A stretch of DNA of 64,000 bases from an uncultured Anaerolinea sp. (GTDB taxonomy: Bacteria; Chloroflexota; Anaerolineae; Anaerolineales; UBA4823): contig CAYQDU010000002.1 in the NCBI GenBank assembly GCA_964416275.1, positions 1,282 through 65,281 of the forward strand. Reading direction: 5' to 3'. The position numbers were made by a program, and so were the translations under genes. The notes beneath the pieces are model-generated. The model was given only the letters and a program-made list of their open reading frames with translations, was not told where the DNA came from and searched no databases. The first letter of the stretch is position 1. Each line of letters opens with the position of its first letter. Below are positions 2,268-41,696 of the stretch, piece by piece.

Positions 2268-2484
2268 GGCTCTCCCAAATTCACCGGGAAAGAAGCTATG
2301 GCTCTTCCGCCGAAGGCGGAAACTTTTCTATGTTTTGGGGAAATTGTGGGGCTATGCTCCACAATTTCCCCAAAACATAACTTTTTCCCCGGCGAAGCTG
2401 GAAGAGTCGAAGTTATCTTGGATGGCCCTTGCGTGGCCGCAAGGACCATCCAAGATAGGAAATCTCGCTTTCAGCGGAAGAGCC
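2268..2484. repeat. cluster of nested palindromic repeats (type-1 element 2300-2408 with inner hairpin 2333-2375; second hairpin 2414-2457; terminal GCGGAAGAGCC arm 2474-2484)
   Basis: Outer arms are GGCTCTTCCGCCGAAGGCGG and CCGGCGAAGCTGGAAGAGTC. The inner 17-bp perfect stem is TTTTGGGGAAATTGTGG/CCACAATTTCCCCAAAA. The same architecture recurs at 31374, 32787, 32906 and 34433. Confidence 0.85.
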
Positions 2485-4324
2485 GCTTTTGCAAACTTCC
2501 GTCCGCCGGCAGCCCGGCCGCTTGCACCGACTGATCAACCGGCGCGGCGTGGCAGGTAGAGCAAACCGCCAGTTCTGGCCGCGCCTGTACCGCCGCCTCC
2601 CGCTGATGGCAGGTCAGGCACCGGCCGTGCATGGCATCCTTATATCCACCTGCTATGGGGTCAAAGGCCGCCTGGCCTTCCACTGGTAGCATATCCACAT
2701 GGCACTCCTGGCAGGCGGCGGCGGCGCGATGCTCGCCCAGATGGCACTCACCGCACGCCGCATTGCCCCCCAGGGCGGCTGTGTGGCGGGTGTGGTCGAA
2801 GATCGAAACGGGAAGGTTGTAATCAGTATGGCACTCGGCGCAGGCGGTGGCCTGGTCGTTGGGTTTCGCCAGGTGGTGGCAGGCGGTGCAGGCTGCGCCT
2901 GGATTTCCGCTTTCGGCATCCTGCTCTGCCAGCCTGGCCTGATGATCGGCGTGCGGAAATACCACACCGATCCCATCCCGGTCGCCGTCGATGGTCAGCC
3001 TCTCCCAGCCTAACGCCCGGCTGACGGGCGTTGGCGATACCATCTTGCCCTGCACCAGCCTCCCCGGCAGGAAGGCTACAGTTAACGCAATCGCCAGCAC
3101 CGCCGCCCCAGAGCGGGCCGCAAAAATGCCGCGCCAGGATGAACTGGTCAGCTGCCCACCTGGCGCGAACGCCGGACGGGCAGCCTCAGGCTGCTTGCCG
3201 GCCGGCAGTTCATCCTGCAGCACCGCCAGCCGCTCGGCAAACAGCAGGTAGACCAGCCCGGCGGCGGCCGGGATGGCAAAGGCGATGACGATCTCCAGCA
3301 GGGCCGGCTGGTAACCGGCTGCGCCGGGCAGGCGCATGGTGAACAGGCTGAGCGACATGCGCTGGCTGAGGATGCCGCCAATCGCCAGCAGGGCGCTGGT
3401 CACCAATCCCTGGGGAGCGCTGCGGATCTTCGCCGACAGCAGCAGCCCGGCTGGCAGCAGCCCGCCCAGCGTGATCTCGACGACAAACCACAGGCTTTGC
3501 CAGGAGCCGTCCAGCCCACCCGGCAGTACGCTGCGCCAGGCCAGGTCGCCCAGGCGCAGCGCCAGGTACAGCCACAGGGCTGCCCCGCCAATCTTTCCCA
3601 AGCGGCTCAGCAGTTCCCCATCCGGCGGGCGATTGAACAGGCGCTGGGCCAGGAAACCCTCCACAATCAGGGCCATCATCCCGGCGGCAATTGCTGATAT
3701 GAAGAACAGCACCGGGATGAGTGGGCTATACCACAGCGGATGCACCCGGTGGGGCATAATCAGGAACAGCGCCCCCAATGACGACTGGTGCAGGGTGGAA
3801 AGCACAATCCCGGCAATCACCAACGGCAAGACGGCATGATGCAGCCAGCCGGCGAGGCGCTGAAATAGGGATCGCTGGAACCAGGGATGCTCCAGGATGA
3901 CCGGAGCAAACTCCAAGATCAGCGCCGTGAGATACAACATCACGCACCAGGCGATCTCGAACATCACCGAATGATGCTGCCAGTGGATGATAGGCATGTA
4001 GATGTGCCAGGGCAGACCCAGGTCGAAGATCAGCGAGATGACAAACGAGCTGTAGCCCAGCAGCGCTAGCAGAATGGCCCGGCGCAGCACCGGCCGGTAG
4101 CGTTCCAGATGGAAGATATACACCATGGCGGCAACGCTGAACCCACCGCCAGAAAGCGCCACAAAGCACAGCTTAAAGGCGATCCACAGCCCCCAGGGAG
4201 CGGCGTCGTTCAATCCAGTCGTCGCACCTAATCCAAGTCCAAAACGCAAAACAGCGGCCACCAGACCAGCAAAGGAGGTAGCCCACAGGATGTCTTTCGT
4301 CCACTTCAAGGCTGTATGTTGCAC
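2471..4324 (-). CDS. NrfD/HybB/DsrP-type polytopic quinone-interacting membrane subunit fused to a C-terminal hexaheme cytochrome c domain
   Basis: 617 aa. The N-terminal ~400 aa are multi-TM with NrfD-like sequence (LWIAFKLCFVALSGGGFSVAAMVYIFHLERYRPV..., HWQHHSVMFEIAWCVMLY). The C-terminus carries six CxxCH motifs: CTACH, CAECH, CGECH, CQECH, CLTCH, CSTCH. Confidence 0.8.
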   Translation of the reverse strand: MQHTALKWTKDILWATSFAGLVAAVLRFGLGLGATTGLNDAAPWGLWIAFKLCFVALSGGGFSVAAMVYIFHLERYRPVLRRAILLALLGYSSFVISLIFDLGLPWHIYMPIIHWQHHSVMFEIAWCVMLYLTALILEFAPVILEHPWFQRSLFQRLAGWLHHAVLPLVIAGIVLSTLHQSSLGALFLIMPHRVHPLWYSPLIPVLFFISAIAAGMMALIVEGFLAQRLFNRPPDGELLSRLGKIGGAALWLYLALRLGDLAWRSVLPGGLDGSWQSLWFVVEITLGGLLPAGLLLSAKIRSAPQGLVTSALLAIGGILSQRMSLSLFTMRLPGAAGYQPALLEIVIAFAIPAAAGLVYLLFAERLAVLQDELPAGKQPEAARPAFAPGGQLTSSSWRGIFAARSGAAVLAIALTVAFLPGRLVQGKMVSPTPVSRALGWERLTIDGDRDGIGVVFPHADHQARLAEQDAESGNPGAACTACHHLAKPNDQATACAECHTDYNLPVSIFDHTRHTAALGGNAACGECHLGEHRAAAACQECHVDMLPVEGQAAFDPIAGGYKDAMHGRCLTCHQREAAVQARPELAVCSTCHAAPVDQSVQAAGLPADGSLQKRLFR

Positions 4325-5101
4325 TCAGGCCTCCTTTGACTGGCGGGCGGCGCGGGCTTCCTGGGCCTGGATGCGCCGTCCGATGATCCACAGCAGACCG
4401 GTCATCAGCCCGGCCGTGGCTGCTGCCAGCGAGGGAACCTTGTTCAGCCACATCTCGCTCAGATCCGGCAGCGGTTGGGTTCCCAGCGCTCCACCGGCCT
4501 GGTGCGCCAGGCCCAGGAAATCCAGCGAGACATCGGAAATATACAGCACCGACGCGCCACCGGCATCCTGTTCGCCATACACCACCGGCAGGTACTTATC
4601 GGGAGCTTCATCGATGCGCTGGTGAGCAATGCGCAGCAGATCACTCCGCTCGCCAAAGGTCAACACCTGCTGCGGACAGGCTTCCACGCACGCCGGAAGC
4701 TGCCCCTGCGTCACCCGCCCGTAGCACAGGGTGCATTTGCGCACCAGCGGCGCCGCCGAATCCCACTGGTAGCGCGGGATGCCGTACGGACAGGCCATCA
4801 TGCAATAGCGGCAGCCCATACAGCGGCTGCTGTCATAGATCACCGGCCCCAGATCAGTCTTGACCATCGCCCCCACCGGGCAGACCGAAACGCAGGCCGG
4901 CTCCAGGCAGTGGCGGCAGAACTTGCGCACCGGGCTGCCGTCTGCGGTGTACACAATCGCAGACCAGCGGTTGGCTGATAGGCCGTCGCCTATCTGCTGC
5001 GCGGTTGGGGTATCCGCGCCCAGATAATTGGCCTGTGTACAGGCATCTACGCACCGATTGCAGCCGTTGCAGCGCGTCACGTCCACCAGGATACCAATCA
5101 T
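4325..5101 (-). CDS. 4Fe-4S ferredoxin-type iron-sulfur subunit (DsrO/HybA/PsrB family) with C-terminal TM anchor
   Basis: Four Cys clusters: CNGCNRCVDAC, CRHCLEPACVSVCP, CMGCRYCMMACP, CTLC...CVEACP. The C-terminal hydrophobic helix is LAAATAGLMTGLLWIIG. The start ATG overlaps the upstream stop. No N-terminal twin-arginine signal is visible. Confidence 0.85.
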   Translation of the reverse strand: MIGILVDVTRCNGCNRCVDACTQANYLGADTPTAQQIGDGLSANRWSAIVYTADGSPVRKFCRHCLEPACVSVCPVGAMVKTDLGPVIYDSSRCMGCRYCMMACPYGIPRYQWDSAAPLVRKCTLCYGRVTQGQLPACVEACPQQVLTFGERSDLLRIAHQRIDEAPDKYLPVVYGEQDAGGASVLYISDVSLDFLGLAHQAGGALGTQPLPDLSEMWLNKVPSLAAATAGLMTGLLWIIGRRIQAQEARAARQSKEA

Positions 5102-5802
5102 AGCTTGCGTCCCTCCGGCCCATACAGGCTGTGGATCGTTTCGCTGCCGCCCTGGCGGGTAAAATGCCAGGCCACTTCGCTGCTCAGGCGGATGAGCGGA
5201 TACAGCACGCAGTGGGCGACTTTGGTGAAGGGGATCAGCGCCAGCAAGAGCAGCCCGTTCAGCACGTGGAACAGCATCAACCGGTCATAGGGGATCGGGT
5301 TCCAACCGCGCCCGGCCAGAAAGCCAGAGAGGAAGATGTTGAGGATAAACACCAGCAACAGATAGTCCATGCCTTTGCTCAGCCGGCGCGAGCTGAGCAC
5401 ATAGATGCGGTGCAGCAGCAGGAACAGCCCGCAGCCAATCGTCAGCAGGGTCAACCCATCAAGAATTGGCTTGGGGATCGCCATCCAGGCAAACCCCAGG
5501 TTGGCGCGCAGCAGATCCAGGTGGTTGGCCAGGAACAGCCCGGCCAGCAGGATGCCGATGTGAAAGCCATACGAGGCGTAGCTGTACAGTCGGCGGGTCT
5601 GGTGGATGCGCCGCACCGGAAACAGCCAGGATAGCGTTTCGCTCAGGATGCGGGCATAGGGGATGCGCCGGTCGCCGGCCCGGCGAATGGCGGCCGCCAT
5701 GCCCCAGATCGATAAAACGACCAGGCGCAGCAGCCCCAGGATGAGGAGGGTCAGCACAAAGCGGGCTATCGGCCCGGTGGCAAGGGTAAGCCAGGCAGGC
5801 AT
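5098..5802 (-). CDS. NarI/DsrM/HmeC-like dihaem cytochrome b membrane subunit
   Basis: 234 aa with about 5 TM helices. His pairs sit within TM helices (FHIGILLAGLFLANH; FHVLNGLLLLALIPFTKVAH, spacing 18 as in NarI helix V). It lies next to an HdrD/DsrK-like protein. Confidence 0.6.
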   Translation of the reverse strand: MPAWLTLATGPIARFVLTLLILGLLRLVVLSIWGMAAAIRRAGDRRIPYARILSETLSWLFPVRRIHQTRRLYSYASYGFHIGILLAGLFLANHLDLLRANLGFAWMAIPKPILDGLTLLTIGCGLFLLLHRIYVLSSRRLSKGMDYLLLVFILNIFLSGFLAGRGWNPIPYDRLMLFHVLNGLLLLALIPFTKVAHCVLYPLIRLSSEVAWHFTRQGGSETIHSLYGPEGRKL

Positions 5803-5820
5803 AGGCGTTGGGTCTCCGGT

Positions 5821-7206
5821 TTATAGTTTAATCGCCCGTAGCACCAGGTCGTGGACCCCCACGATCTGGACCGGGGCCTTGTAGTAATCCATCAATTCGC
5901 GCAATTGCTTCTTGCAGTTGGCGCACGGGGTCGCCACAATCTGCGCGCCGGTAGCCAGGATCTGCTCAGCCTTCAGCTTGCCAGAAACCTGCATCCGGAA
6001 ATCGTGGGTCTCATCCAGCGATACCAGCCCGCCCCCGCCGCCGCAGCAGTAGTTCTCGGCGCCGTGCGGCGTCATCTCTACAAAATCTTTGACGAAGCTC
6101 TTCAAGATCTGGCGCGGCTGGTCGACGATCCAGCCGGAGCGGGCGATGTTGCACGGGTCGTGGTAGGTTACCCGTTCGGTCACCGCGTCCGGGTCGAGGG
6201 TCAATTTTCCCTGCTGGATGGCCTGCCAGGTCAGCTCGAGGACGCTCACCACCGGCAGGGCCTGTTCCTGGGCGAAGACCGGCACGAACTGGCGCGCCGA
6301 GCGCGCTGCGTGTCCGCACTCGCCCACCAGGATTTGCTTGGCCTGCAGCCGCCGCGCCTCGCCCACCAGCTTGCCGATGATGCGCTCTAGCACCCAGTCG
6401 TTGTAGAACAAACCGTAGTTGATGCCATCAAAGTAGCCCGAGCCAATCGTCCAGTTGGTTTGCGTGGCGTGCAGCACGGCCGCATTGCCCATCAGGGTAT
6501 CGGCCTCCATCAGGTAGTCGCTGACGGCCGGGAAGAAGATATAGTCGGCGCCTTCCTGATCCACCGGGAACTTCACTTCAGCGCCCTTCATGTCAGCCAC
6601 TTCTTCTTCCAGGAACTCCAGGTTGTCCATCAGCGCCGGCAGGGGGATGGCCGAGGTGTTGCCGGTCTTGCCTTCCAACTGCTCGCGCACCGAAACTACC
6701 AGGCCCTTGGGGCTGATCCCGGCCTCGCTGAAGATATAGCGCCCCAGGTGGGTCATCAGGGCATGATCGACGCCCATCGGGCAGGCAATCTTACAGCGCC
6801 GGCAGGCCGAGCAGCGGTAAAAGACTTCCGCCATCTCATCAATGGTTGCTTCGGTAAGCGCCTGGGAACCAAACAGGCGGGCGCGCAGCGCCCCACCGGG
6901 GGTGAAATACTGGCGGTAGACCTCCAGCAGCAGGTTGGTGCGGTAGCAAGGCACGTCGCGTAGGTCGCCGCTGACCTGGTAAACCTGGCAGGCGGCCGCG
7001 CAGCGCCCGCACTTGCTGCTGGTGTGGGCGTACAGATCGAGCAAGAAACCGTAATTGCTGTGCTGCAAAATAGCGCCAAAAGCATTCAGGAAACGGATGA
7101 TCCTATCGCCGGCTGAGGCAGCTTGCGGCTCTACATGATAAAAGGCCTTCGGCTTAGCAGCCAGCTGGATGTTAGAACTGGAGGCGGAAGCTGGTGAAAT
7201 CGTCAT
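5821..7206 (-). CDS. HdrD/DsrK/HmeD-like (Fe-S)-binding protein with CCG domain
   Basis: 461 aa. Ferredoxin-like motifs CGRCAAACQVY and CSACRRCKIACPMG. The C-terminal Cys-rich CCG region is DPCNIARSG ... NYCCGGGGGL ... TPCANCKKQL. Confidence 0.8.
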   Translation of the reverse strand: MTISPASASSSNIQLAAKPKAFYHVEPQAASAGDRIIRFLNAFGAILQHSNYGFLLDLYAHTSSKCGRCAAACQVYQVSGDLRDVPCYRTNLLLEVYRQYFTPGGALRARLFGSQALTEATIDEMAEVFYRCSACRRCKIACPMGVDHALMTHLGRYIFSEAGISPKGLVVSVREQLEGKTGNTSAIPLPALMDNLEFLEEEVADMKGAEVKFPVDQEGADYIFFPAVSDYLMEADTLMGNAAVLHATQTNWTIGSGYFDGINYGLFYNDWVLERIIGKLVGEARRLQAKQILVGECGHAARSARQFVPVFAQEQALPVVSVLELTWQAIQQGKLTLDPDAVTERVTYHDPCNIARSGWIVDQPRQILKSFVKDFVEMTPHGAENYCCGGGGGLVSLDETHDFRMQVSGKLKAEQILATGAQIVATPCANCKKQLRELMDYYKAPVQIVGVHDLVLRAIKL

Positions 7207-9884: not shown

Positions 9885-11105
9885 ATGATAAGTTCCGATT
9901 TTATCACCACCTATATTGGAACCTATACCCGGCGCGAGTCATTTGTAGACGGCAAGGCCGAAGGCATTTACATCTATCGCCTGGATCTTCGCTCCGGCGG
10001 ACTGACCCACACCGCCACTGTAACCGGCGAAGGCGCGGTTAATCCGTCATATCTGGCGTTCGGGCCCAGCAAGCGCTATCTCTATGCAGTCAACGAGATC
10101 ACCCGAGGCGCAGGCCCGCATGGGACTGTCAGCGCCTTTGCCGTCGATCCGGTGACCGGCGGGTTGCGTTACCTGAACCAGCAGTCCACGGTTGGGCTAT
10201 CACCGTGCTATGTGAGCGTCGAGCCGGAAGGCCGCTACTGCCTGGCGGCGAACTATGAGAGCGGCAGCGTCAGCGTTTTGCCGATCCGCGAAGACGGGTC
10301 CTTGGGAGAGACAACTGATACGATTCAGTTTTCCGGTTCCGGACCTAATGTCGAGCGACAGGAAGGCCCGCATGCCCACATGATTGCGCCTGCCCCTTAT
10401 GACCGTCTCATTCTGACTATCGACCTGGGCGCAGACCGGCTGATGGCGTTCTATCTCGATCTGGAACGGGGCAGGCTAAGCCCGGCTGCTTCTGCGTGGA
10501 CGCAGTTTCCTCCCGGCGCCGGCCCGCGCCACCTCGCCTTTCACCCCCGCCAGCCATTCGTCTACGTCATCAATGAACTTCAATCCACGGTCACCGTTTT
10601 CCAATATCTGGGGATCTCCCGGCTTCGCCGGGAAAAAAGTACAATTTGGGGATCAGCGCGCAACGCAGCCGCGCAAAGACCTCCAAACACAGAAGAAATC
10701 CCACCTGCAACCGAAGAGCCATATCAGGAAGGGCAGAGCCTGTTTAAGAGGGTACAGGTCATTTCAACCCTGCCCACCGATTTCACCGGACAAAACCTGG
10801 GCGCAGCAATCCGGGTTGCACCCTCGGGGCGCTTTGTCTACGCATCCAATCGGGGTCACAACAGCCTGGCGATCTATGCCGCCGACCCGGAGACTGGCCG
10901 GCTATCCCTGATTGGACACCAGCCAACGCAGGGCGCTGCGCCGCGCGATTTCAATATCGACCCAACCGGCGCACTGCTGCTGGTTGCCAACCAGGACTCG
11001 GACACGCTGGTCACCTTCTGGATCGATCCCGATTCCGGTACGCTGCGGGCAGCCGGGAGCGTGGCGACGCCAACGCCGGTTTGCATCCAACTGGCTGACG
11101 CATGA
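9885..11105 (+). CDS. lactonase-family 7-bladed beta-propeller protein (6-phosphogluconolactonase YbhE-like) carrying a repeat-derived in-frame insertion
   Basis: YIGTYT... GIYIYRLD start, NPSYLAF, SPCYVSV, GPRHLAFHP, repeated propeller blades, and a C-terminal PRDFNIDPTGALLLVANQDSDTLVTF. Start ATG 9885 is preferred over the track start 9840. Confidence 0.8.
   Translation: MISSDFITTYIGTYTRRESFVDGKAEGIYIYRLDLRSGGLTHTATVTGEGAVNPSYLAFGPSKRYLYAVNEITRGAGPHGTVSAFAVDPVTGGLRYLNQQSTVGLSPCYVSVEPEGRYCLAANYESGSVSVLPIREDGSLGETTDTIQFSGSGPNVERQEGPHAHMIAPAPYDRLILTIDLGADRLMAFYLDLERGRLSPAASAWTQFPPGAGPRHLAFHPRQPFVYVINELQSTVTVFQYLGISRLRREKSTIWGSARNAAAQRPPNTEEIPPATEEPYQEGQSLFKRVQVISTLPTDFTGQNLGAAIRVAPSGRFVYASNRGHNSLAIYAADPETGRLSLIGHQPTQGAAPRDFNIDPTGALLLVANQDSDTLVTFWIDPDSGTLRAAGSVATPTPVCIQLADA
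10611..10720. repeat. degenerate type-1 repeat copy inserted in frame inside the lactonase CDS
   Basis: GGGATCTCCCGGCTTCGCCGGGAAAAAAG...TTTGGGG...CCAAACACAGAAGAAATCCCACCTGCAACCGAAGAGCC. The right flank is nearly identical to intergenic copy 34506-34541 (AAACACAGAAGAATTCCCACCTTGGGCAGGAGAGCC). Confidence 0.75.
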
Positions 11106-11138
11106 AAACGGCGCTGGCGCGATCACTTTTCGCTGGCC

Positions 11139-12443
11139 TCAGGCCGGCTTCTTTTCAGCCACGCCCCTCGAAGACCGCCCACCTTGTTTGATGATATAGA
11201 CCAGCGCCAGGGAAAGCAGCGCCAGCCCCAGGAAAAGGCTGAAGCCCGAAGCATATCCATGCATCCCCTGGCTGCGCACGATGGCGCCCAGCACGGGCGG
11301 GATCACAAACCCGCCGAATGCGCCCAGCCCACCGACCCAGCCAGTGACTCCACCCACCGCATCTGGGGCCGCCTGGGGAGTCAGCTTAAACACCGCCGCG
11401 CTCCCAATCCCCATCCCAAAGGCCAGCAGCAATTCGGCGCTCAGCGCTCCGGGCAAACCAGCAGCAAAGCGCATCAGCCCGGCGCCCGACAGGATGAACA
11501 GCAGGGCGATCGCAATGGTATTCTCACCGCCCAGCCGATCCGACAATCGGCCGCCCACAACCCGCATCAGCGAGGCGGTAATAGAGAACAAGCCTGTCAG
11601 CGCGCCGGCCTGAAGTACACCGAGGCCCTGATAGGCGACCCAATAAGTGGGCAGCCAGGCGGTAAGCGCCACAAACCCGCCAAACGTGGTGAAATAGATC
11701 CCCACCAGCGCCCAGGTCATCCAGCGCCGCGCCGAGCGTGAAAGGCTGACAACCAGGCTGCCAGAAGGGAAAATTTGCTGGCCGGCCTTCCGCGCCGTTT
11801 CAAGAGCCGGGCCGGGAGCCATACCCTGGGCGACCAGCTGGAAGTACGGCGCGTTCAGGCCGAAGCGATAATACAGCCCGGTTCCAACAGCCAGAAGCAG
11901 AAACCAGTCCAGGTAGGAAGCGCCCAGACCAAGCTGCACCAGCGCAACCGGCAGCACAAACGTAAAGACCCCCGGCGCCAGATTGCCCAAACCGGCATAC
12001 ACCCCTAATGCAGCGCCCTGACGCTCTTTTAGATGCCAGTAAGACAGCGTGCTGGCCCCCACCGAAAAGGTAGCAATCCCGCACCCGCTCAGCACCGCCA
12101 GGAACAGCAGCAGCGGATAGAGGCCGGGAGACAGCCGGTCTGGATAACTCCACAGGATTACGGCGGTCAGCCCGCCCATCCCCAACAGAGCCAGCGCCAG
12201 CAGGATCAGGAAAGGCTTGCGTCCGCCGGTGGCGTCCACCCAGGCGGCAAACGGGATGCGCAGCAGCGATCCTGATAACGACGGGGCGGCCACCAGAAAA
12301 GCGGTCATCATGGGAGTCAGCCCCAGGCCGTCTTTAATCCGCGCTACCGTTGGCCCAAACAACGCCACTGCGGCAAAGCCAAAGAAGAAACCAATGGTTG
12401 CGCCTGTCAGAGCGCGAGCAGAATTGCCTCGAATTTCATTCAT
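11139..12443 (-). CDS. narK: MFS nitrate/nitrite transporter (NarK/NasA-like)
   Basis: 434 aa with 12-TM MFS architecture (GFFFGFAAVALFGPT..., WVDATGGRKPF loop motif). It lies 15 nt downstream of narI on the same strand. The symbol is assigned from family resemblance plus context. Confidence 0.75.
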   Translation of the reverse strand: MNEIRGNSARALTGATIGFFFGFAAVALFGPTVARIKDGLGLTPMMTAFLVAAPSLSGSLLRIPFAAWVDATGGRKPFLILLALALLGMGGLTAVILWSYPDRLSPGLYPLLLFLAVLSGCGIATFSVGASTLSYWHLKERQGAALGVYAGLGNLAPGVFTFVLPVALVQLGLGASYLDWFLLLAVGTGLYYRFGLNAPYFQLVAQGMAPGPALETARKAGQQIFPSGSLVVSLSRSARRWMTWALVGIYFTTFGGFVALTAWLPTYWVAYQGLGVLQAGALTGLFSITASLMRVVGGRLSDRLGGENTIAIALLFILSGAGLMRFAAGLPGALSAELLLAFGMGIGSAAVFKLTPQAAPDAVGGVTGWVGGLGAFGGFVIPPVLGAIVRSQGMHGYASGFSLFLGLALLSLALVYIIKQGGRSSRGVAEKKPA

Positions 12444-12458
12444 GTTGGCACCCCAGGT

Positions 12459-13151
12459 CTATGATCGTTCTGGCATCTTCACCCGCCTGGCCCGCACCAC
12501 AATTTGCCAGGGCCGGAACAGGTAGCCGAGCGGGTAGGTGAGGATATGCACCAGCCGGCTGAACGGGAACACGATGAGCAGCGCAAAGAAATTGAAGACG
12601 TGCAGCCGGATCACAAACGGCAGCGGCGCAACCAGGGTGATCTGGGGTTGAAAGGTCAGCAGCGACCACAGGTAAGGGGTGAAAATCGCCGTGAACCAGG
12701 TGGAGCCGAAGCGGTAAACGGATGCCGTCCAGATGCCCGTAATGACCGACACCAGCAGCAGCGCCAGCACCACCCAGTCCATCGCAGAACTCACGACGCG
12801 CACTCGCCGCTCGCCAAACCGCCGCCAGACCAGGATCAGCAGCCCGCCCAGCGCCCAAATCGCCAGCCCCAGGCCCGTCAGCTCCAGCAGATACAACCGC
12901 AGGGGCTGAGCGTTCCAGGCCCGGATGGTGTTAGGGAAGAACAGCGCCGCCAGATGACCCAGCAAAATCAGCACGACGCCCCAATGAAACGAGATTGATC
13001 CCCAGTAAAGCTTCCTGCGCTCTAACAGTTGCGATGATAGGCTGGAGATAGTGAACGGTCGAAAGATCGACCGGTACACCAAGCCGACGATAAAGGCGGC
13101 CAGCGCCAGATATGGGAAGATCAAAAACAGGATTGTGTTCCAATCGATCAT
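12459..13151 (-). CDS. narI: respiratory nitrate reductase gamma subunit (cytochrome b)
   Basis: MIDWNTILFLIFPYLALAAFIVGLVYR..., HWGVVLILLGHLAALFFP and the C-terminal FSRLVHILTYPLGYLFRP are typical NarI. The ATGA overlap with the narJ stop is at 13148-13151. Confidence 0.9.
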   Translation of the reverse strand: MIDWNTILFLIFPYLALAAFIVGLVYRSIFRPFTISSLSSQLLERRKLYWGSISFHWGVVLILLGHLAALFFPNTIRAWNAQPLRLYLLELTGLGLAIWALGGLLILVWRRFGERRVRVVSSAMDWVVLALLLVSVITGIWTASVYRFGSTWFTAIFTPYLWSLLTFQPQITLVAPLPFVIRLHVFNFFALLIVFPFSRLVHILTYPLGYLFRPWQIVVRARRVKMPERS

Positions 13152-13651
13152 ATCTTCTGCCCTTCCAGTGCCTCTATCAATCCCAGGTAAGGGTTGCTGC
13201 TATCTTTCTCACGCAAACGAGCGGCCATTTTTTCAAGCGCCCGGTTGAACACCTGCCCCAGTTCGTCCGGAATGAAGCCGGCGGCGATGCAGCGCAAGAC
13301 CGGCGCCAGGTGATCGGGCAGTTCTCCGCCTGTCTCCACACCAGCCTGGCGGCAGGCTGCCTGCATCTGCGTCAGGAAGTTGCCCCGCCTGTAATCTTCG
13401 CCCCAGATATGGAAACCGATATAGGGCGGGGTAAGGGGGTCCAGGTCCCAGGTGCGGGTGTACAGTTCCTCCCATTCGCCCAGGCTCAGCCGCCCAACCT
13501 GCGCCAGGAAGCCCAGCAATGCGGCTCGCCGGGGATGCGCCGCCAGGCGACCGGCATCCAGGGTGAGCTGTTCGTGCAGGCCCGCAAACGGATAGCGAAA
13601 GGCGTCGGCATAGATGGCATAGGTCGCATCGCTGATGGTTGGGGTGATCAT
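13148..13651 (-). CDS. narJ: nitrate reductase molybdenum cofactor assembly chaperone
   Basis: 167 aa between narH and narI, with typical NarJ/TorD-like size and position (YAIYADAFRYPF..., LPDHLAPVLRCIA). Confidence 0.8.
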   Translation of the reverse strand: MITPTISDATYAIYADAFRYPFAGLHEQLTLDAGRLAAHPRRAALLGFLAQVGRLSLGEWEELYTRTWDLDPLTPPYIGFHIWGEDYRRGNFLTQMQAACRQAGVETGGELPDHLAPVLRCIAAGFIPDELGQVFNRALEKMAARLREKDSSNPYLGLIEALEGQKI

Positions 13652-13654
13652 GGT

Positions 13655-15163
13655 TCACTCCCCACGCCGCGGCGCTTGCAGGTAGCCCAGCCCGGCCTCG
13701 CCCTTGTGGGCCAGCGGGTCGCGCAGCGCTTCCACCGATAGCTCGCGGTGATAAGGGGGCAGCAAAAAGCGCTCGTCGAGGGTGGGCAGCGTGGTCAGGC
13801 GGTAGATGGCCTCTGCCTGGGCGGCGTCCAGCCCGGCCTCGACCAGCATGGCTTGCGTGGCCTCGTCCACATCACCTTCAACGCTCTGGCGCCGCTTATA
13901 GGCGCGCACCGCCAACAGCTTGCGCAGGATTGTGCGAATCGGGGCTTCATCACCGGCGCTGAACAGGTTTGCCAGGTATTTCACCGGCATACGGGCATCG
14001 TCCAGGTGGCGGAACAGCTCAAAGTCGTGAGCGTCATCGGATAGATCCAGTTTATACAGCCCTTCTTCGATTACGCTGACCACCGGTGAGAGCGGCAGGA
14101 TGTAGAACATCATCGCCAGCGTGCGGAATTCGGGATGCAGCGGCAGGGCCAGCCCCCACTGCTTGACGAACTTATAGACGGGCGATTTCTGGGCAGCCTC
14201 GATCCAGCCGGCATCCAGGCCGCTATCATAAGCGGCGGCGATCACCTGCGGGTCGAACGGGTCGAGGATAGCCGCCCGCTGCGCCGCCGCCAGATCGCGA
14301 GCTGGCCCCATAGCCGCTTCAGGCAGCCGGTCGGCGTCGTACAACAGCACGCCCATGTAGCGAATGCGCCCTACGCAGGAATGGGCGCAGGCCGGCGCCT
14401 GGCCGGTTTCCAGGCGTGGGAAGCACAGGATGCACTTCTCAGACTTGCCAGTGGCCCAGTTGTAATACACTTTCTTATAGGGGCAGGCAGCCACGCACAT
14501 GCGCCAGGCGCGGCACTTGTTCTCGTTCACCAGCACCACGCCGTCTTCGCTGCGCTTATAGATCGCCCCGGATGGGCAGGCGGCCACGCAGGCCGGGTTC
14601 AGACAGTGGTTGCAGATGCGCGGCAGATAGTTGAACACCAGCCGTTCCAGCTCGCTCAACTGCTCGCGCACCGTTTCCGGCAGGCCGTCCAGGTTCAGGT
14701 CGTTCTCGGCATACAGCTTCGACCCGCCCAGATCGTCATCCCAATTGGGGCCGCCCTTAATTTCCATCGGCTGCCCGGTAATCATCGAGATGGGGATAGC
14801 GGTGGGCTGGTCATCGCCGGCCGGGGCGTCGAACAGGTCCTTATACCGGAAAGTGAACGGCTCGTAGTAATCGTCCAGCTCCGGCAAGCTGGGGTTGTAG
14901 AAAAGTTTGAGCAGCCCGCCCAGCCTGGAGTGCAGGCGCAGGCGCAGCGCGCCATCCTTCATCTCCCATCCGCCGCGGAAATGCTGCTGATCTTCCCACT
15001 GGGTTGGGTAGCCGGTTCCTGGGCGGGTCTCGACGTTGTTCCACCACATATATTCCGCGCCCTTGCGGTCTGTCCACAGGTTCTTGCAGGCCACCGAGCA
15101 GGTATGGCAGCCGATACACTTATCCAGGTGGAAAAGCATGCTCATGTGCGCGCGTACTTCCAT
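13655..15163 (-). CDS. narH: respiratory nitrate reductase beta subunit (Fe-S)
   Basis: MSMLFHLDKCIGCHTCSVACKNLWTDRKGAEYMWWNNVETRPGTGYP, CNHCLNPACVAACPSGAIYKRSEDGVVLVNENKCRAWRMCVAACPYKKVYYNW. Canonical NarH. Confidence 0.95.
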   Translation of the reverse strand: MEVRAHMSMLFHLDKCIGCHTCSVACKNLWTDRKGAEYMWWNNVETRPGTGYPTQWEDQQHFRGGWEMKDGALRLRLHSRLGGLLKLFYNPSLPELDDYYEPFTFRYKDLFDAPAGDDQPTAIPISMITGQPMEIKGGPNWDDDLGGSKLYAENDLNLDGLPETVREQLSELERLVFNYLPRICNHCLNPACVAACPSGAIYKRSEDGVVLVNENKCRAWRMCVAACPYKKVYYNWATGKSEKCILCFPRLETGQAPACAHSCVGRIRYMGVLLYDADRLPEAAMGPARDLAAAQRAAILDPFDPQVIAAAYDSGLDAGWIEAAQKSPVYKFVKQWGLALPLHPEFRTLAMMFYILPLSPVVSVIEEGLYKLDLSDDAHDFELFRHLDDARMPVKYLANLFSAGDEAPIRTILRKLLAVRAYKRRQSVEGDVDEATQAMLVEAGLDAAQAEAIYRLTTLPTLDERFLLPPYHRELSVEALRDPLAHKGEAGLGYLQAPRRGE

Positions 15164-15200: not shown

Positions 15201-18200
15201 CTAAAATTCCACCTGATCGAGCTTGCGAACGAACACAAAGGTATCGCGGTTCACGCCCGTCGGCCCCCAGTAGTTGAACGCATAGGAAAACTGGGCGTAA
15301 CCGCCGCTCATCAGCACCGGCTTGAGCCGGATCCGGGTCATCGAGTTATTCATCCCTGCCCGGCGGCCGCGCCCCGGCGACTTCGGAATGCCAACCGTAC
15401 GTTCGGTGGCATGATAGACAAACACCGTCCCGGCCGGGATGCGGGCGGAAACGCTGGCCCGCTGCACAAATACACCGTTGTCGTTGTACAATTCGACCCA
15501 GTCATTGTCCTCGATGCCCAGTTCGGCCGCGTCTTTATCATTGAGCCAGACGGGGTAGCCGCCGCGCGATAGGGTCATCATGCGGTGGTTCTCCGAGTAG
15601 GTGGAGTGAATGCTCCACTTGCCATGCGGCGTAATGTAATTGAACAGCTTGCCGTGCTGCCCGGCCAGGAGGCTCTGGTCAGCATCGCTGACCATCGTGT
15701 GGTCGGGCTTGGGCTTGTAGACCGGTAGATGCTCGCCCCAGGCCAGGTAGCTCTCGTGATCCAGATAAAAATGCTGCCGCCCGGTAAGCGTGCGCCATGG
15801 CACCAGCCGGTCCACATTGAGCGTAAACGGCGAATACGCGCGGCCCTGATTGACAATGGCCGACCAGGTGGGCGCGGTCAGCACCCGCCGGGGCTGGGAG
15901 ACAAGGTCGGCAAACGAGTAGCGCACATCGCGCAGCCCTGCGGCCAGGTCGGTTAATTCCAGGCCGGTCTTATGCTCTTCTAACGCAAAGGCGCGGTGGG
16001 CCAGCTCGCCGTTGGAGGCCGGGTCCAAGCGCAGGATGGCATTGGCAGCCTGGCGGGCTTCCTCCAGCGAGGGATAGCACACCGGCTCAGCTTTCGAGCC
16101 ATCCGGCCCGCTGCCATTCCCGTTCGCCCGGGGCCATGATTTGCCAAAGGTGCGCGGCTGCTGGGCCAACAATGCCTGATATTCATCTGCGACCGGAATC
16201 GTCAGCCCATGCGCGTTTACCCCGTTCTGCTCGACGCCGCGCCCCAAACTGACCATACACTCGTACAGGCTGGTATAGTCACGCTCGATGACCCGGAACT
16301 TGGGCATTGTCTTTCCAGGGATCGGTTCGACTTCGCCAGTCTTCCAATCCTGCACCGTCGGCTGAGCCAGCTCGTCGGGGGTATCGTGCTGCAAGGGAAG
16401 CATGACGATGTCTTTGACCGGCTGGCGCAGATGGACGCGCGCAAATTCGCTGACCTTAAACGCCACCGCCTTGTAGATTTCCCAATCGCTCTTCGATTCC
16501 CATGCCGGCGGTACAACCGCCTGCATGGGGTTGATAAACGAATGCAGATCGGTGGTGTTCAGATCGTCTTTTTCGTACCAGGTGGCGGCCGGCAGCACCA
16601 GGTCCGAGTACAGCGCCGAGGTATCCATGCGGAAGTTCAGGTCTACCACCAGGTCGAGCTTGCCGGTGGGGGCCTGGGGATGATAGGCAACTTCGGAGGT
16701 GCAGCCCTGGGCCAGTTCGGCGGCGATGGTGTTGCTGTGCGTTCCCAGGTAATGGCGCATAAAGTATTCATGGCCCTTGGCGCTGGCGCCGATGGCGTTG
16801 CCGCGCCAGATGAACCACACCCGGGGCCAGTTTTCCGGCGCGTCTGGGTCTTCTACGGCGAACTTCAGGCGGCCCTGCTTCAACTGCGCCACAACGTGGT
16901 TGATGATCTCGGCGTCGGTAGCGGCCCCCTGATCCTGAGCTTCTTTGACCACAGCCAGCGGGCTGCGGTTGAACTGGGGGAAGAACGGCAGCCAGCCGCG
17001 CCGCACCGCTCGCACCTGATGATCGATGGTATGACCGCCGGCCAGGTCTGTTGCTCCGCCCGGCAGTGCATCGTAAGCGGCAAAGCCACGCTCGTAGCGC
17101 CATTGGTCGGAATGTACATAATGGAAGGAAGGCGTGTTCTGCTGGCGGGAAGCCATGCCCCAATCGCCGGCAAAAGCAATCGCGCCCCAGGAGGCGTGAT
17201 TAACCAGCTTCTCCTGCCCCACGTAGTGCGCCAGCCCGCCGCCGTTCACGCCCACGCTGCCGGTCAGCATCAGCGCTGTGATGGCCGAGCGATAGATCAG
17301 GTTGTTGTGATACCAGTGATTGGCCCCTGCGCCGATGATGACCAGGTTCTTGCCGTGGGTCTTCTCGGCATTGTGGCCCCACTCTCTGGCAAAGCGCAGC
17401 AGGGTGTCGCGGTGAATGCCGGTCAGCGACTCTTGCCAGGCGGGCGTGTAGCAGGCCTCCTCGTCATACGACTGCGGATACTCACCCGGCAGGCCGCGCC
17501 CCACCCCAAAGCGGGCCATGGTCAGGTCGAACACCGTCGCCACGGCCACGCGCCCGGCGCTGGTCTGCACGTAGCGCACCGGAACGCCGCGCCGCAAAAC
17601 CGTTCCGCTTTCAAAGGCGTCGAAGCCTAATTCCAAGACATCGTCATGCGCATCGAGGAAGCTCAATTCCGGGTCAAGCGCCGCGCTGGTGCTGGCGTCT
17701 TCCATCTTCAGGTTCCACTTGCCTGGGTCTTGCTTGCTCCAGCGAAAGCCAATACTGCCCTTCGGCATGCGAGCGGTATCGCTGGCCCGATCCCAGACCA
17801 GCAGCTTCCAATCCCCATGTTCCTCATCGGCATAGTCTGCCAGGCGGTTAGCGCGCAGGTATCGGCCGGGCGCAGCCCTCACCCCTGGCCCCTCTCCCCT
17901 GCCGGGAGAGGCGAAGCCCAAACCTTCTTGCCCCATCTCATCAGGGGAGGCGAGGGGAATCTCCACCAAAAAGGGCATATCGGTATACTGCTTCAGATAC
18001 GCATTGAAATACGGCGTCTGCCGGTCAACATAGAATTCTTTGAGCAGCACATGGTTGACCGCCATCCAAAAAGCGGCGTCTTGTCCAGCGTGTACCGGGA
18101 TCCAGTAATCGGCATATTTAGCCACCTGCGAAAAATCGGGCGAAAAAACCGTCAGCTTGGCCCCCGCGTGGCGCACTTCGGAGATGAAATGCGTGTCGGG

Positions 18201-18938
18201 CGTGCGGGTCATGTTCAGGTTGGCGCCCATAACGGCAATAAAGCGGGCGTTGTACCAGTCGGCCGATTCGTGCACGTCGGTCTGCTCTCCCCACACCTCC
18301 GGGCTGGCCGGCGGCAGGTCGCAGTACCAGTCATAGAAGCTCATCGGCACGCCCCCCAACAGCGATAGGAAACGGCTGCCGGCGGCGTAGCTGATCTGCG
18401 ACATGGCCGGAATGGGCGAAAAGCCCACCACCCGGTCGGGGCCGTACTGCTTGACCGTATAGATCACCGAGGCGGCAATAATTTCCAACGCCTCGTCCCA
18501 GGAGATGCGCCGGAAGCCGCCTTTGCCGCGCGCCGTCTGAATGGCGCGCCGCTTTTCCGGGTCAGAGACAAGCACCGCCCAGGCGGCCACCGGGTCGCTG
18601 TACTGCTTGCGCGCTTCCCGCCAGGCGTCGATCAGCGTCCCGCGCCCGTAGGGGTATTTCACCCGGATCGGGCTGTACAGATACCACGAGAAGCTGATGC
18701 CGCGCTGGCAGCCGCGCGGCTCATAAGGAGGCAGGCCGGCTTCAAGCTGCGGGTAATCGGTGGCCTGCAGCTCCCAGGTGACGATGCCATCTTTGACGAA
18801 CACCTCCCACGAGCAGCTCCCGGTGCAGTTCACGCCATGCGTGGTGCGCACACGCCGGTCGTGCTGAAAACGGTTGCGATAAAATTCCTCCCACTGACGC
18901 TCAGCGGGCGATTCGACATCCTTAGTCCACTCATCCAT
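15201..18938 (-). CDS. narG: respiratory nitrate reductase alpha subunit (Mo-bisMGD), cytoplasmic Nar/Nxr type, with an in-frame repeat-derived insertion
   Basis: FS0 motif [23 protein letters not shown]. 1245 aa. No twin-arginine signal. Followed by narHJI. Confidence 0.95.
17873..17962. repeat. palindromic repeat (arms CCCCTCTCCCCT / AGGGGAGGCGAGGGG) embedded in frame in narG, encoding ...[28 protein letters not shown]...
   Basis: The arms match the arms of the intergenic element at 37743-37878 (TCTCATC..AGGGGAG.GAGGGG). There is an internal small hairpin CCTCTCCC-CTGCC-GGGAGAGG. Confidence 0.65.
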
Positions 18939-18962
18939 CGGGGTCTTCTCCCATTTGTTCGG

Positions 18963-19826
18963 TTATACAGATTGGGCTGCGCCGCGGCCACGGCGGACAC
19001 GTTCGGCCGCCGATGTTGCCCAGCGCGGCCGGAAGGCCAGCATGACGACGAACAAGAGCAGCGTCAGGCCGGCGCCAATGATCGAGAACCAGGTCCCAGG
19101 CGTCACCAGAGCGGTGGGCGGCGGGAGCGCATCGCTGGCCTTGAAATACGCGATCAAGTCGGCCTGTTCCTGCGGCGAGAGGGGTTTATTCAGGAACGGG
19201 CCGGCCATGGTTGGGAAAGTGATCTGGTTCAAATTGGCGGTCAGGCCAGCCTCGCCGTAACGCTGCAGCACATGGGTCAGGTCTGGGCCCAGGCCGCCGC
19301 CGCCCAGGGGAACGACGCCCTGCACCGTATGGCAGGCCAGGCAGGCCGGGCCGCCGGCGCCCTGCGTCGTCTGTCCTATGAACAGCCGCCGTCCTGCCTC
19401 CGCGTCGCCCCCCGGCAGGCTCGCCGCCGGGCTGGTGGGCGCAGCCCCCACGCCGCCAGGGTTCTCCAGGTAAGCCAGCAGGGCCGCCACATCGGCTTCC
19501 GATAAGCCCAGGTTTGGCATAGGCACCTGGTTATTCTCGGCAAGCAACTGCTGCGCCACGGGGTCTCCAGAAGCAATCATCTTGTCTGGAGCGGAGATAA
19601 AACTGTGCAGCCAGTTCAGGTCTCGGCGCCGAGTCACGCCCTGCAAATCTGGCCCAACCAGTCTGCCGCTGCCAATCGTATGGCACGCGGCGCACTTTTG
19701 CCGGAACAGGGCCTGCCCATCCTGGGCGCTTTGCGCATCCAACCCGGCTGCGGCTGGCGAGAGCCGGGAGGCCAGCGCAAATGCGCTCATACAAAACAGC
19801 AGCACGGCAAGCAAATAACGTTTCAC
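18963..19826 (-). CDS. membrane-anchored dihaem cytochrome c
   Basis: Signal peptide MKRYLLAVLLFCMSAFALA. Two CxxCH motifs (CAACH, CLACH). C-terminal TM WFSIIGAGLTLLLFVVMLAF. GTG start at 19826 with GGAGGAA 5 nt upstream. Its stop lies 24 nt upstream of the narG start. Confidence 0.8.
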   Translation of the reverse strand: MKRYLLAVLLFCMSAFALASRLSPAAAGLDAQSAQDGQALFRQKCAACHTIGSGRLVGPDLQGVTRRRDLNWLHSFISAPDKMIASGDPVAQQLLAENNQVPMPNLGLSEADVAALLAYLENPGGVGAAPTSPAASLPGGDAEAGRRLFIGQTTQGAGGPACLACHTVQGVVPLGGGGLGPDLTHVLQRYGEAGLTANLNQITFPTMAGPFLNKPLSPQEQADLIAYFKASDALPPPTALVTPGTWFSIIGAGLTLLLFVVMLAFRPRWATSAAERVRRGRGAAQSV

Positions 19827-19868
19827 AGAGTTCCTCCGCTGGTTGGTTCTTCAAATGTCTGTTTTGCG

Positions 19869-20222
19869 TCAATCCTGGATCGGCAACCGGTAGATCAAAT
19901 CCAAAAAATCATGCCGGCTGGCCGCGGCCAGGTGTGAGCTGTAGATCTGCACCTGGTTGTTATCCAATGTCACCCGCAGAATTGGCAAGTTCGGATACTC
20001 ATCCAGGATTTGGGCGGTCAGACGCGATAAAGATTCACTTGTTTTGCCCTCATCGGCCAAAATGACCAGGTCGGGGGCGGCCTGTCTTAGCTTTTCCATG
20101 AAGGTGTCATCCACCCGCCAGTGGCCGGCCAATTCCAGGTCGTCAAGCTGGTTGAGCATTTGCTCGACGCCTTCCCCCAACAGGCCTTTTGCGCTAAACA
20201 GGAGAATTCGCTTTTTCCTCAT
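19869..20222 (-). CDS. small CheY-like receiver-fold protein with degenerate active site (pseudo-receiver), weak assignment
   Basis: 117 aa. RILLFSAKG (no acidic pair), DLVILADEG, PILRVTL. The receiver-like beta/alpha periodicity lacks the conserved DD and K. Confidence 0.35.
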   Translation of the reverse strand: MRKKRILLFSAKGLLGEGVEQMLNQLDDLELAGHWRVDDTFMEKLRQAAPDLVILADEGKTSESLSRLTAQILDEYPNLPILRVTLDNNQVQIYSSHLAAASRHDFLDLIYRLPIQD

Positions 20223-37742: not shown

Positions 37743-37878
37743 CCCTCCCCCCGCCCCCTCGCCGAGATGAAGGTGGACTTGCGCCCCAGTGAAAATACAG
37801 GCTGGGGAGTTGGATCGGCAAAGCCGATCCAACTCCCCAGCCCAGCTATCCTCTCTCATCTGAAAGGGGAGAGAGGGG
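37743..37878. terminator. nested palindromic element exactly filling the convergent intergenic gap; the inner perfect 17-bp hairpin (37802-37840) is a likely bidirectional terminator
   Basis: CTGGGGAGTTGGATCGG-CAAAG-CCGATCCAACTCCCCAG. Outer imperfect inverted arms are CCCTCCCCCCGCCCCCTCGCCGAGATGA and TCTCATCTGAAAGGGGAGAGAGGGG. The flanking stop codons are at 37740-42 and 37879-81. Confidence 0.7.
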
Positions 37879-40865: not shown

Positions 40866-41696
40866 TCAGGCTTGAGGGGTGAGGGCTACGGGCTCGTCTG
40901 TCTCATCGTCGGCCAGTTCGCCTTCGTCTGCGGCCGGTTGTCCGTCGGCCGGCTCGCCGTCGTCCACATGCGGCAGAACCAGGGGCGGCCAGTCCAAGCG
41001 TTCTTCCAGGGCGGCCACGACAGTCTGGTAGATTTTGATCCAGGTAAAGCGGCGGTGGGTGGCCTCCACAATCGTCCAGGGTCCCCACTCGGTTTCGGTG
41101 CGCTCGAAGGCTTCTTCGTAGGCCAGCAGCCAATCGTCGTAGCGGTAATGATGTTCCCAGTCTTCAGGGCTGACGTGCCAGGCGCTGAGCGGGTCTTTGG
41201 TCAGCTTATTGAAGCGCTGCTTCTGCTCGGCCTTCGAGATGTGCAGGAAGAATTTGAGGATCAACGCCCCGTCGTCGGCCAGGGCGCGCTCGAAGTCGGT
41301 AATGTCACGATAGGCCCGCCGCCATTCCTCTTCAGGGGTCAGCCCCTCCACCCGCTCGACCAGCACGCGCCCGTACCAAGAGCGGTCGAAGATGGCCCAC
41401 TCGCCGCGGGCAGGAATCTTATTCCAGAAGCGCCACAGCCAGGGACGTTTCTTTTCGTAAGTGCGGGCGGCCCGGATGGGATAGAGCTTGTAGCCGCGTG
41501 GGTCGAGGGCGCTGGTGAGCTTCTGGATGGAGGTGCCTTTACCGGCTGCGTCCCAGCCCTCGAACAGAATGACAACCGGGATGTGTGCGTCCCAGGTGGC
41601 CTTCTGAATTTCATACAGGCGCTCTTCCAGGCGCGGCGCCCAGGCTTTATAGAGCGATTTGCCTATATTGCGGTTGAGGTCGAGTTTTTCCAGCAT
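40866..41696 (-). CDS. ppk2: polyphosphate kinase 2 family protein (second paralog)
   Basis: VILFEGWDAAGKGTSIQKLTSALDPRG, FDRSWYGRVLVERVEGL. Start moved to ATG 41696 (MLEKLDLNRNIGK); the track start is 41774. Confidence 0.9.
   Translation of the reverse strand: MLEKLDLNRNIGKSLYKAWAPRLEERLYEIQKATWDAHIPVVILFEGWDAAGKGTSIQKLTSALDPRGYKLYPIRAARTYEKKRPWLWRFWNKIPARGEWAIFDRSWYGRVLVERVEGLTPEEEWRRAYRDITDFERALADDGALILKFFLHISKAEQKQRFNKLTKDPLSAWHVSPEDWEHHYRYDDWLLAYEEAFERTETEWGPWTIVEATHRRFTWIKIYQTVVAALEERLDWPPLVLPHVDDGEPADGQPAADEGELADDETDEPVALTPQA

Follow-up and report, generated by a model that had tools for sequence, protein, structure and literature searches.

An in-frame triplex-motif repeat in the narG gene of an uncultured Anaerolinea

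The narG gene, which encodes the alpha subunit of respiratory nitrate reductase (NarG), lies on the minus strand of a stretch of 64,000 nucleotides (nt) from an uncultured Anaerolinea sp. of the Chloroflexota (contig CAYQDU010000002.1, positions 1,282 to 65,281), called the window below. Protein and codon alignments show that this otherwise canonical gene carries an extra segment inserted in frame, and by sequence and block order 36 nt of the segment belong to a known family of repeats, the G/C-rich "intrastrand triplex motif" (TM or TMECO, earlier BoxC or PIT; Holder et al., 2015, Nucleic Acids Res, PMC4666352). Repeats of this family also occur at the same codon position in other Chloroflexota narG genes and in that of Geomonas paludis. 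The best explanation, which we regard as probably correct, is that a TM was copied into the codons of a NarG turn, where it is tolerated as a translated passenger in a hypervariable loop.

The extra segment of narG and the repeat within it

The features concerned, all on the minus strand, are as follows.
15201..18938, minus strand: narG, respiratory nitrate reductase alpha subunit, an open reading frame (ORF) of 1245 amino acids (aa) with 0 internal stops
17871..17957, minus strand: the whole extra segment, codons 328-356 (29 codons), placed by protein and codon alignments and residue-to-coordinate mapping
17876..17911, minus strand: the TM repeat copy of 36 nt, coding strand CCTCTCCC-GGCAG-GGGAGAGGGG-CCA-GGGGTGAGGG
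17904..17911, minus strand: TM A arm CCTCTCCC, an inverted repeat of 8 nt, 100% complementary
17889..17899, minus strand: TM B arm GGGGAGAGGGG, which can form pairs with the A arm, and imperfect ones with the outer arm 17949-17957
17876..17885, minus strand: TM C arm GGGGTGAGGG, a mirror repeat of B and a member of a direct-repeat family
17912..17957, minus strand: the 5′ part of the insert, CCCCTCGCCTCCCCTGATGAGATGGGGCAAGAAGGTTTGGGCTTCG, which has a "mismatch" A arm of the TM type (CCCTCGCC) at its start

The homologue set consisted of the best 120 listed NarG sequences, mostly from Chloroflexota metagenome-assembled genomes (MAGs), and the alignment comprised 121 sequences. At the site of the segment the eight closest homologues (82-83% identical) read FLVEL-DGS-RPGRY; the 29 codons of the window gene stand against 4 (DGSR) in these closest relatives, a net gain of 25 codons or 75 nt. 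Most of the remaining homologues have a turn of 3-5 residues, and E. coli NarG has 21 residues fewer at the position of the insert. A neighbour-joining tree built without the insert region nests the window sequence among insert-less ones. The original prediction had held that canonical NarG is shorter here, and the alignments bear this out; the comparison with NarG homologues that it proposed as a check finds the segment missing from the closest relatives, so that the segment is an insertion of repeat-derived DNA, in frame in narG and without counterpart in the nearest relatives or in E. coli.

The structure and coding that had been described for 17873-17962 are also present. On the plus strand a perfect 8-bp hairpin is formed by 17891-17898 and 17904-17911 (CCTCTCCC / GGGAGAGG), the outer 9-nt arms (17889-17897 and 17949-17957) are 89% complementary, and the minus strand is translated through the segment without a stop, inside the 1245-aa ORF, into a peptide of the predicted GEGPGVR type. 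Whether folded as RNA or as DNA, the insert has energies that do not surpass those of dinucleotide-shuffled sequences (z = +0.3 to -1.6), and the case against chance therefore rests on sequence matches.

Such matches were found in public sequencing runs, in which the window sequence is present: a run labelled as an organism, and metagenomes from wastewater, biofilm and sediment. Contigs of eight DNA runs were aligned to the narG region. In all eight the region including the insert is identical, 0 contigs lack the insert, and the insert-bearing contigs of these independent assemblies have normal depth. In four of the eight runs (X3, X1, X4 and X5), 2 to 6 other contigs match exactly 17876-17911; they do so on both strands and at genome-like depth, and continue into unrelated sequence beyond these positions, the copies being counted here in metagenome contigs or contigs of a mixed run rather than in the source genome. 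As the matches stop at 17876-17911, the repeated unit is the 36-nt TM, not the whole 90-nt "palindrome". The claim of a palindromic repeat in narG thus holds for a part of the segment, which is repeated in the same genome or community, but not for the whole of its roughly 90 nt. The organism-labelled run X3 also contains contigs of a second related genome, 90-95% alike and of similar depth, so this run is not a pure culture or paralogous regions are present. In a scan of genome collections the best NarG match, from an Anaerolinea thermophila MAG, was 78% identical.

The blocks of the 36-nt element follow one another as A arm, loop, B arm, 3-nt spacer and C arm, the last a mirror of B. This is the order of TM/TMECO (PMC4666352), in which a C-rich arm is joined through a loop of 3-6 nt to the G-rich arm complementary to it, and this in turn through a loop of 3 nt to a further G-rich arm, its mirror image, and the blocks are nearly alike in sequence as well (CCCTCTCC / GGGAGAGG / GGGTGAGGG); an E. 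coli TMECO example, CCCTCTCCCTGTGGGAGAGGGCCGGGGTGAGGGC, is near-identical to the window element (PMC4666352). B and C mirror each other in 9 of 10 positions, and the remaining one would give an allowed T*A-T triad; the C arm could therefore serve as third strand in a purine-motif triplex. The window contains the core GGAGAGGGGNNNGGGGTGAGG a single time, with 0 mismatches, where 0.21 occurrences are expected even at up to 3 mismatches. The family core, GGAGAGGGG-N3-GGGGTGAGG, is matched exactly by the window TM, the complementary arm preceding it, and is found in at least 110 stretches of viral contigs, many with several copies; across these the conserved block is CTCCCCTC(T/G)CC-loop-GGAGAGGGG-N3-GGGGTGAGG, with unrelated flanks. 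Five of the six frames of the window TM are open. An Rfam search with five TM-rich loci returned no family; the element is not among the described RNAs.

Like the window element and its matches, TMECO is dispersed, multi-copy, found in both orientations, patchy among close relatives and associated with local rearrangement (PMC4666352). TMs form a triplex in vitro and are tied to local genome instability, their function and their mechanism of mobility being unknown (PMC4666352). The differences concern place and host. The 23 copies of E. coli K-12 are "always intergenic" (PMC4666352), whereas the window copy lies within the reading frame of an intact narG and is presumably translated; and the published census (3610 TMECO copies in 262 genomes; PMC4666352) is proteobacterial, whereas the copies described here are in Chloroflexota and a Geomonas species.

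The window narG looks like a live gene, its ORF, catalytic motifs and operon being intact and its insert the same in 8 of 8 DNA runs. Its product scores 1492 bits against the TIGR01580 profile (cut-off 1084), full-length and above the trusted cut-off; residues 13-1244 align end to end with E. coli NarG (1Q16/1R27), and in this alignment the FS0 motif and the Mo-ligand (Asp) segment are conserved. Low-depth fragments 100% identical to the window narG occur in two sludge RNA-seq runs. The possibility that narG is a pseudogene, which the original prediction had raised against itself, is countered by this intactness. The cytochrome c gene directly upstream of narG is found there in all relatives examined, and the gene order downstream is the same in relatives. 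The neighbours are as follows.
18963..19826, minus strand: cytochrome c gene (Pfam match), directly upstream of narG
13655-15163, minus strand: narH (Pfam match), downstream of narG
13148-13651, minus strand: 167-aa ORF in the position of narJ; no match in the Pfam search
12459-13151, minus strand: narI (Pfam match)
11139-12443, minus strand: MFS transporter gene (Pfam match), the last of the operon part 11139..15163 downstream of narG

For the 46 nt ahead of the TM in the coding direction (17912..17957) there are three candidate origins: a second TM that has decayed, a piece of a composite element specific to the genome, or filler DNA. Among the other contigs of these runs, none matches this part at 80% likeness or more. 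Two features concern the relation of this part to an intergenic palindrome elsewhere in the window.
17936..17957, plus strand: shared gapped motif TCTCATCAGGGGAGGCGAGGGG, with a gapped counterpart at 37854-37878
37743..37878, no strand assigned: nested palindrome of 136 nt, flanked by convergent genes and with an inner stem of 20 bp that pairs perfectly

The original prediction had matched the arms of the two elements. The window has exactly two occurrences of the motif TCTCATC-N0-4-AGGGGAG-N1-2-GAGGGG, at 17936 and 37854 of the plus strand, against 0 in 300 Markov-1 simulations, but the motif is short and was defined post hoc from these same two sites, and BLAST of the insert against 37743-37878 finds shared 9-mers only. 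The minus strand of the palindrome has TM-like arms, CCCCTCTCTCCCC ... GGCGAGGGG-GCG-GGGGGAGGG, and the relation to the narG insert is limited to such short arm motifs. No assembled contig in the runs examined links the two elements. A related contig of run X3 with flanks about 90% alike has 35 unrelated nt in place of 37743-37878, which is therefore an insertion/deletion polymorphism; the assemblies of three other runs break within it. Two identities considered for the 5′ part were set aside: a widespread module, as the gapped motif was found 0 times in 207 fetched loci and once in viral contigs, and a "double A-arm" TM variant, as a second arm lies upstream in 9 and downstream in 12 of 143 cases, without enrichment. 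An isolated AGGGGTGAGGGCT, which is the TM C arm only, adjoins the end of an ORF at 40875-40887 of the window and is a TM remnant or a chance match (short-BLAST E = 0.08).

Recurrence at the same NarG turn in other lineages

A TM is present at the same NarG codon position in five other Chloroflexota genes, read in two frames, and in Geomonas paludis, the sister sequences being empty. The turn peptides, under our handles for the sequences, are as follows.
P0020: SPLPEGEGAGVRA, frame GEGxGVR
P0040: SPLPAGEGAGVRA, frame GEGxGVR
P0057: SPLLRGEGLGVRS, frame GEGxGVR
P0074: SPLPEGEGSGVRS, frame GEGxGVR
P0048: PSPDGRGAGGEGV, another frame, shifted by 1 nt, of the GRGAGGEG type
Geomonas paludis Red736 (Desulfuromonadota): SSSPLPLGEGQGEG; G. 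edaphica is empty

Since the same DNA gives different peptides, the element is one of DNA. In the tree P0020, like the window sequence, is nested among empty sequences; the group of P0040, P0048, P0057 and P0074 is interleaved with empty sequences, and Geomonas, whose gene is 56% identical to that of the window and has its own flanks, stands separately. From these four placements at least four independent gains follow. P0108 retains a TM copy in decayed form. In a relative of P0074 (L201 / L204, JGI metagenome contigs), the B-spacer-C part of the narG TM is tandemly duplicated (SPLLAGEGSGVRS-ESAGEGSGVRS), a sequence arrangement that shows how an intragenic TM can expand in frame. P0069 has a TM-like peptide in a second hypervariable NarG loop, seen at the protein level alone. 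A scan of metagenome collections for the narG junction together with a TM yielded three narG contigs only; the phenomenon is sporadic, not common.

Outside narG, TMs show several arrangements. In G. paludis, 11 TMs lie in 23.6 kb, of which 10 are intergenic, against 0 in the syntenic 23.5 kb of G. edaphica. Within this locus (L145, Red736), about 1.1 kb (18779-19900) with seven TM copies is missing in G. edaphica, and four of the seven are spaced 137-138 nt apart, a regularity that points to a larger unit, with a TM in it, arrayed in tandem; 16370-16515 holds another TM-bearing insertion of about 143 nt. Two ORFs, each of about 1200 aa, stand 4 kb from one another in the same locus (2351-5962 and 9941-13585); the downstream one is the TM-bearing narG homologue. 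Arrays with a spacing of about 72 nt and conserved spacers (...cgtctttgctcgtcgtcggtgaggcttctc...) occur in two IMG/VR contigs, at 1749-2829 of L050 and 2324-3276 of L078; by their layout the arrays are tandem repeats centred on the TM, here in contigs classed as viral, and a CRISPR-like origin was set aside, as the repeating unit is the TM itself. The contig that carries the P0020 insertion, L002, has a second TM in opposite orientation in the narG-narH spacer (4662-4696). The syntenic spacer of P0096 (L209) holds a different G/C-rich palindrome.

Loop, junction and competing explanations

Only three NarG segments vary in length by at least 25 residues across the 121 sequences, and the turn with the insert is one of them. 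The other two hypervariable loops are residues 931-954 (about 16077-16148) and 627-635; the former has an N/G/S-rich expansion (23 aa, where the median is 4) that is not TM-derived and that the window protein has in common with its eight closest relatives. In an AlphaFold model of the window NarG (mean predicted local distance difference test score, pLDDT, 67.6), the FLVEI strand leads into coil, and for most of the insert the pLDDT is less than 50. The surface loop of the original prediction is plausible on this model: the indel hypervariability and the modelled coil fit it, but the coil is of low confidence and the model mediocre.

The explanation that we favour would run as follows. A 36-nt TM would have been copied into the codons of the β-hairpin turn of NarG (...FLVEI | turn | RPGRYLRA...), probably by microhomology-guided template switching or by repair that used a TM elsewhere in the genome as template; in the window it would have arrived with, or after, about 40 further nt of partly TM-like DNA. 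Because the gain is a multiple of three and brings no stop in frame, the gene stayed intact and the repeat would be read as a Gly/Pro-rich loop, and because the turn is one of only three indel-hypervariable NarG loops, the insertion would be tolerated. A like insertion took place independently in other lineages, where older copies decay by mutation.

The junction is seen most clearly in one filled/empty pair. L155, the empty sister of P0048, reads GAA CTC|GAG GGC TTG and P0048 reads GAA CTC|CCCTCTCCTGACGGGAGAGGGGCCGGGGGT|GAG GGC GTG, an exact insertion of 30 nt between the native CTC and GAGGGC with no target duplication, and native CTC and GAGGGC are the two ends of the repeat consensus. A net gain of 30 nt is also found in P0020 and Geomonas, where the junctions are not clean. 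An exact 30-nt junction with no duplication and no transposase-type signature fits template switching or repair better than transposition. Attempts to derive an insertion rule elsewhere were abandoned: at E. coli tauD-hemB the alternative alleles replace the whole spacer, and at the intergenic sites of Geomonas the insertions are larger composite pieces. The tauD-hemB spacer has three alleles (L205-L207), namely a TM (K-12), a TM plus 51 nt, and a REP-like hairpin replacing the whole spacer, and its K-12 form is not full-length in about a third of E. coli genomes.

Several observations weigh against this explanation or narrow it. The clean junction comes from one pair of moderately diverged genes, and the other pairs are unclean. 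A single TM leaves the 5′ 46 nt of the insert, which are not repeated in the assemblies, unexplained. In both sludge RNA-seq runs the insert lies outside the reach of the RNA contigs, and DNA carry-over is possible. The published TM pattern, CCCTCNCCC-N3-6-GGGNGAGGG-N3-GGGNGAGGG (PMC4666352), does not match the window copy, nor any of the Chloroflexota narG copies even with one mismatch per stem; the narG copy of G. paludis and TM no. 5 of E. coli do match it. The reason is that the arms read GGGG-N3-GGGG, not GGG-N3-GGG, being one G longer on either side of the spacer; given these longer G arms, the window copy, which fits the "4G-variant" pattern, is a variant in a broader G/C-rich TM class rather than a strict TMECO. 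In 180 kb of Chloroflexota narG neighbourhoods just one TM, that of L002, lies outside narG, so that the narG site is over-represented relative to local TM density, which hints at site preference or selection. Lastly, all seven TM copies at the turn (7/7) are in sense orientation, which is not significant because they represent about four independent events.

Site preference is the substance of a further explanation, in which insertion is targeted or trapped by homology: the codons of (L/I)-(D/E)-G, CTC GA(G/C) GGC, look like the two repeat ends put together (CTC..., ...GAGGGC), so that a polymerase that stalls or carries out repair there would jump onto a TM template and return, or the site would be recognised by some unknown enzyme. 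It is compatible with the favoured explanation, of which it would replace only the step of random insertion plus filter, and we hold it to be possible, on balance doubtful. The exact 30 nt of P0048 between native CTC and GAGGGC speak for it, as do the fact that CTC belongs to the 5′ border conserved in the family (with frequencies at -3 to -1 of 73% for C, 67% for T and 96% for C), the empty sites of several relatives, which read CTC GAC GGC or CTC GAG GGC, the net gain of 30 nt in three lineages and the scarcity of TMs otherwise near Chloroflexota narG genes. This clean junction is single, however; to account for the junctions of P0020, P0040 and G. paludis, small deletions or replacements must be assumed in addition, the 5′ junction of the window copy itself (ATT|CCCCTCGCC) does not fit, P0069 apparently has a TM in another loop, and the filled/empty TM locus of E. 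coli is a whole-spacer replacement and offers no simple insertion rule. With three permissive loops, moreover, the chance that four of five events fall in one loop is about 0.14, and tolerance alone can therefore explain the recurrence. The general form of the idea, that TM/BoxC may spread by microhomology-guided template switching into CTC|GAGGGC-like sites for which the NarG turn acts as a trap, is a tentative proposal that we rate slightly lower still.

Selection is invoked when the insert is taken as exapted, as the original prediction had suggested for a surface loop: either the loop, through a partner contact, or a hairpin or triplex of DNA or RNA, through pausing during cofactor insertion, would have been kept for its function. 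The convergent gain of the same element at the same site in two phyla, the identity of the insert in every run examined and the conservation of synonymous positions (GGA GAG GGG ... GGG GTG AGG) between proteins only about 75% identical would be expected from this, but recent copying from a conserved repeat family explains the nucleotide conservation equally well. Most NarGs, the nearest relatives included, lack the insert; copies decay (P0108), duplicate (L201) and use two frames giving unrelated peptides; as RNA or DNA the insert is predicted to fold no more stably than shuffles do; and for TMs neither promoter nor terminator activity was found in previous studies quoted in PMC4666352, nor a stable triplex in vivo in that paper itself. 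A hypervariable loop with an ordinary RNA fold and decayed copies elsewhere fits tolerance rather than a selected function, and we consider exaptation unlikely. Least probable of all, to the point of being nearly negligible, is that the segment is not an insertion or not real, being ancestral and lost elsewhere, spread by narG recombination, an assembly artefact or part of a pseudogene. Filled and empty genes are interleaved in the super-clade of P0040, P0048, P0057 and P0074, and descent or recombination is possible there. Against this, the empty relatives keep the canonical D/E-G turn of distant clades, which precise loss could not restore, the window sequence and P0020 are each nested among empty sequences, and the Geomonas gene is distant, with its own flanks; the identical sequence at normal depth in independent assemblies of eight runs and the intact ORF, catalytic motifs and operon speak against an artefact or a pseudogene.

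Relation to other repeats and meaning

As a phenomenon, the nearest analogue is that of the in-frame Rickettsia palindromic elements (RPEs; 2000, 2002, summarised in PMC10969869), which are about 100-150 bp long, confined to Rickettsia and encode a conserved peptide. RPEs are likewise palindromic repeats that lie in frame in unrelated or essential genes, encode a fold-compatible peptide and are missing in orthologues; the narG repeat, too, is in frame and stop-free, leaves its host ORF intact and is missing from orthologues. Compared by these descriptions only, the narG TM differs in its 30-36 nt, its spread across phyla and its use of at least two reading frames. The only host gene in which a TM was seen in frame is narG, 10 of the 11 TMs of the G. 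paludis locus being intergenic. Repetitive extragenic palindromic (REP) sequences, which are mobilised by RAYT transposases, and MITEs, the miniature transposable elements with inverted repeats, are also short, GC-rich, dispersed palindromic repeats. Unlike REP/RAYT, the TM has no GTAG/CGTC tag at its conserved edges (consensus CTCCCCTC...GGGGTGAGG; RAYT genes were not searched for), and unlike a MITE its 36-nt unit lacks terminal inverted repeats and its clean junction shows no target-site duplication.

What appears to be new, from the sequences compared here, is that the TM family, intergenic in E. coli, can be protein-coding and can repeatedly hit one NarG turn in two phyla. A TM/BoxC element can also have its place within an essential respiratory gene, where it would be translated as part of the protein. 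The β-hairpin turn after YTDMPFLV accepts 10-25 extra residues, which may be useful for engineering or tagging NarG, and peptides of the type GEGxGVR or SPLPxGEG are to be treated in annotation as translated repeats, not as domains. If a template-switching trap does operate, it would explain at least four entries at one codon position in two phyla, and NarG would supply natural filled/empty pairs for working out the mechanism of TMs. The recurrent entries together with one exact 30-nt junction offer a concrete, testable lead to the way in which TMs are copied.

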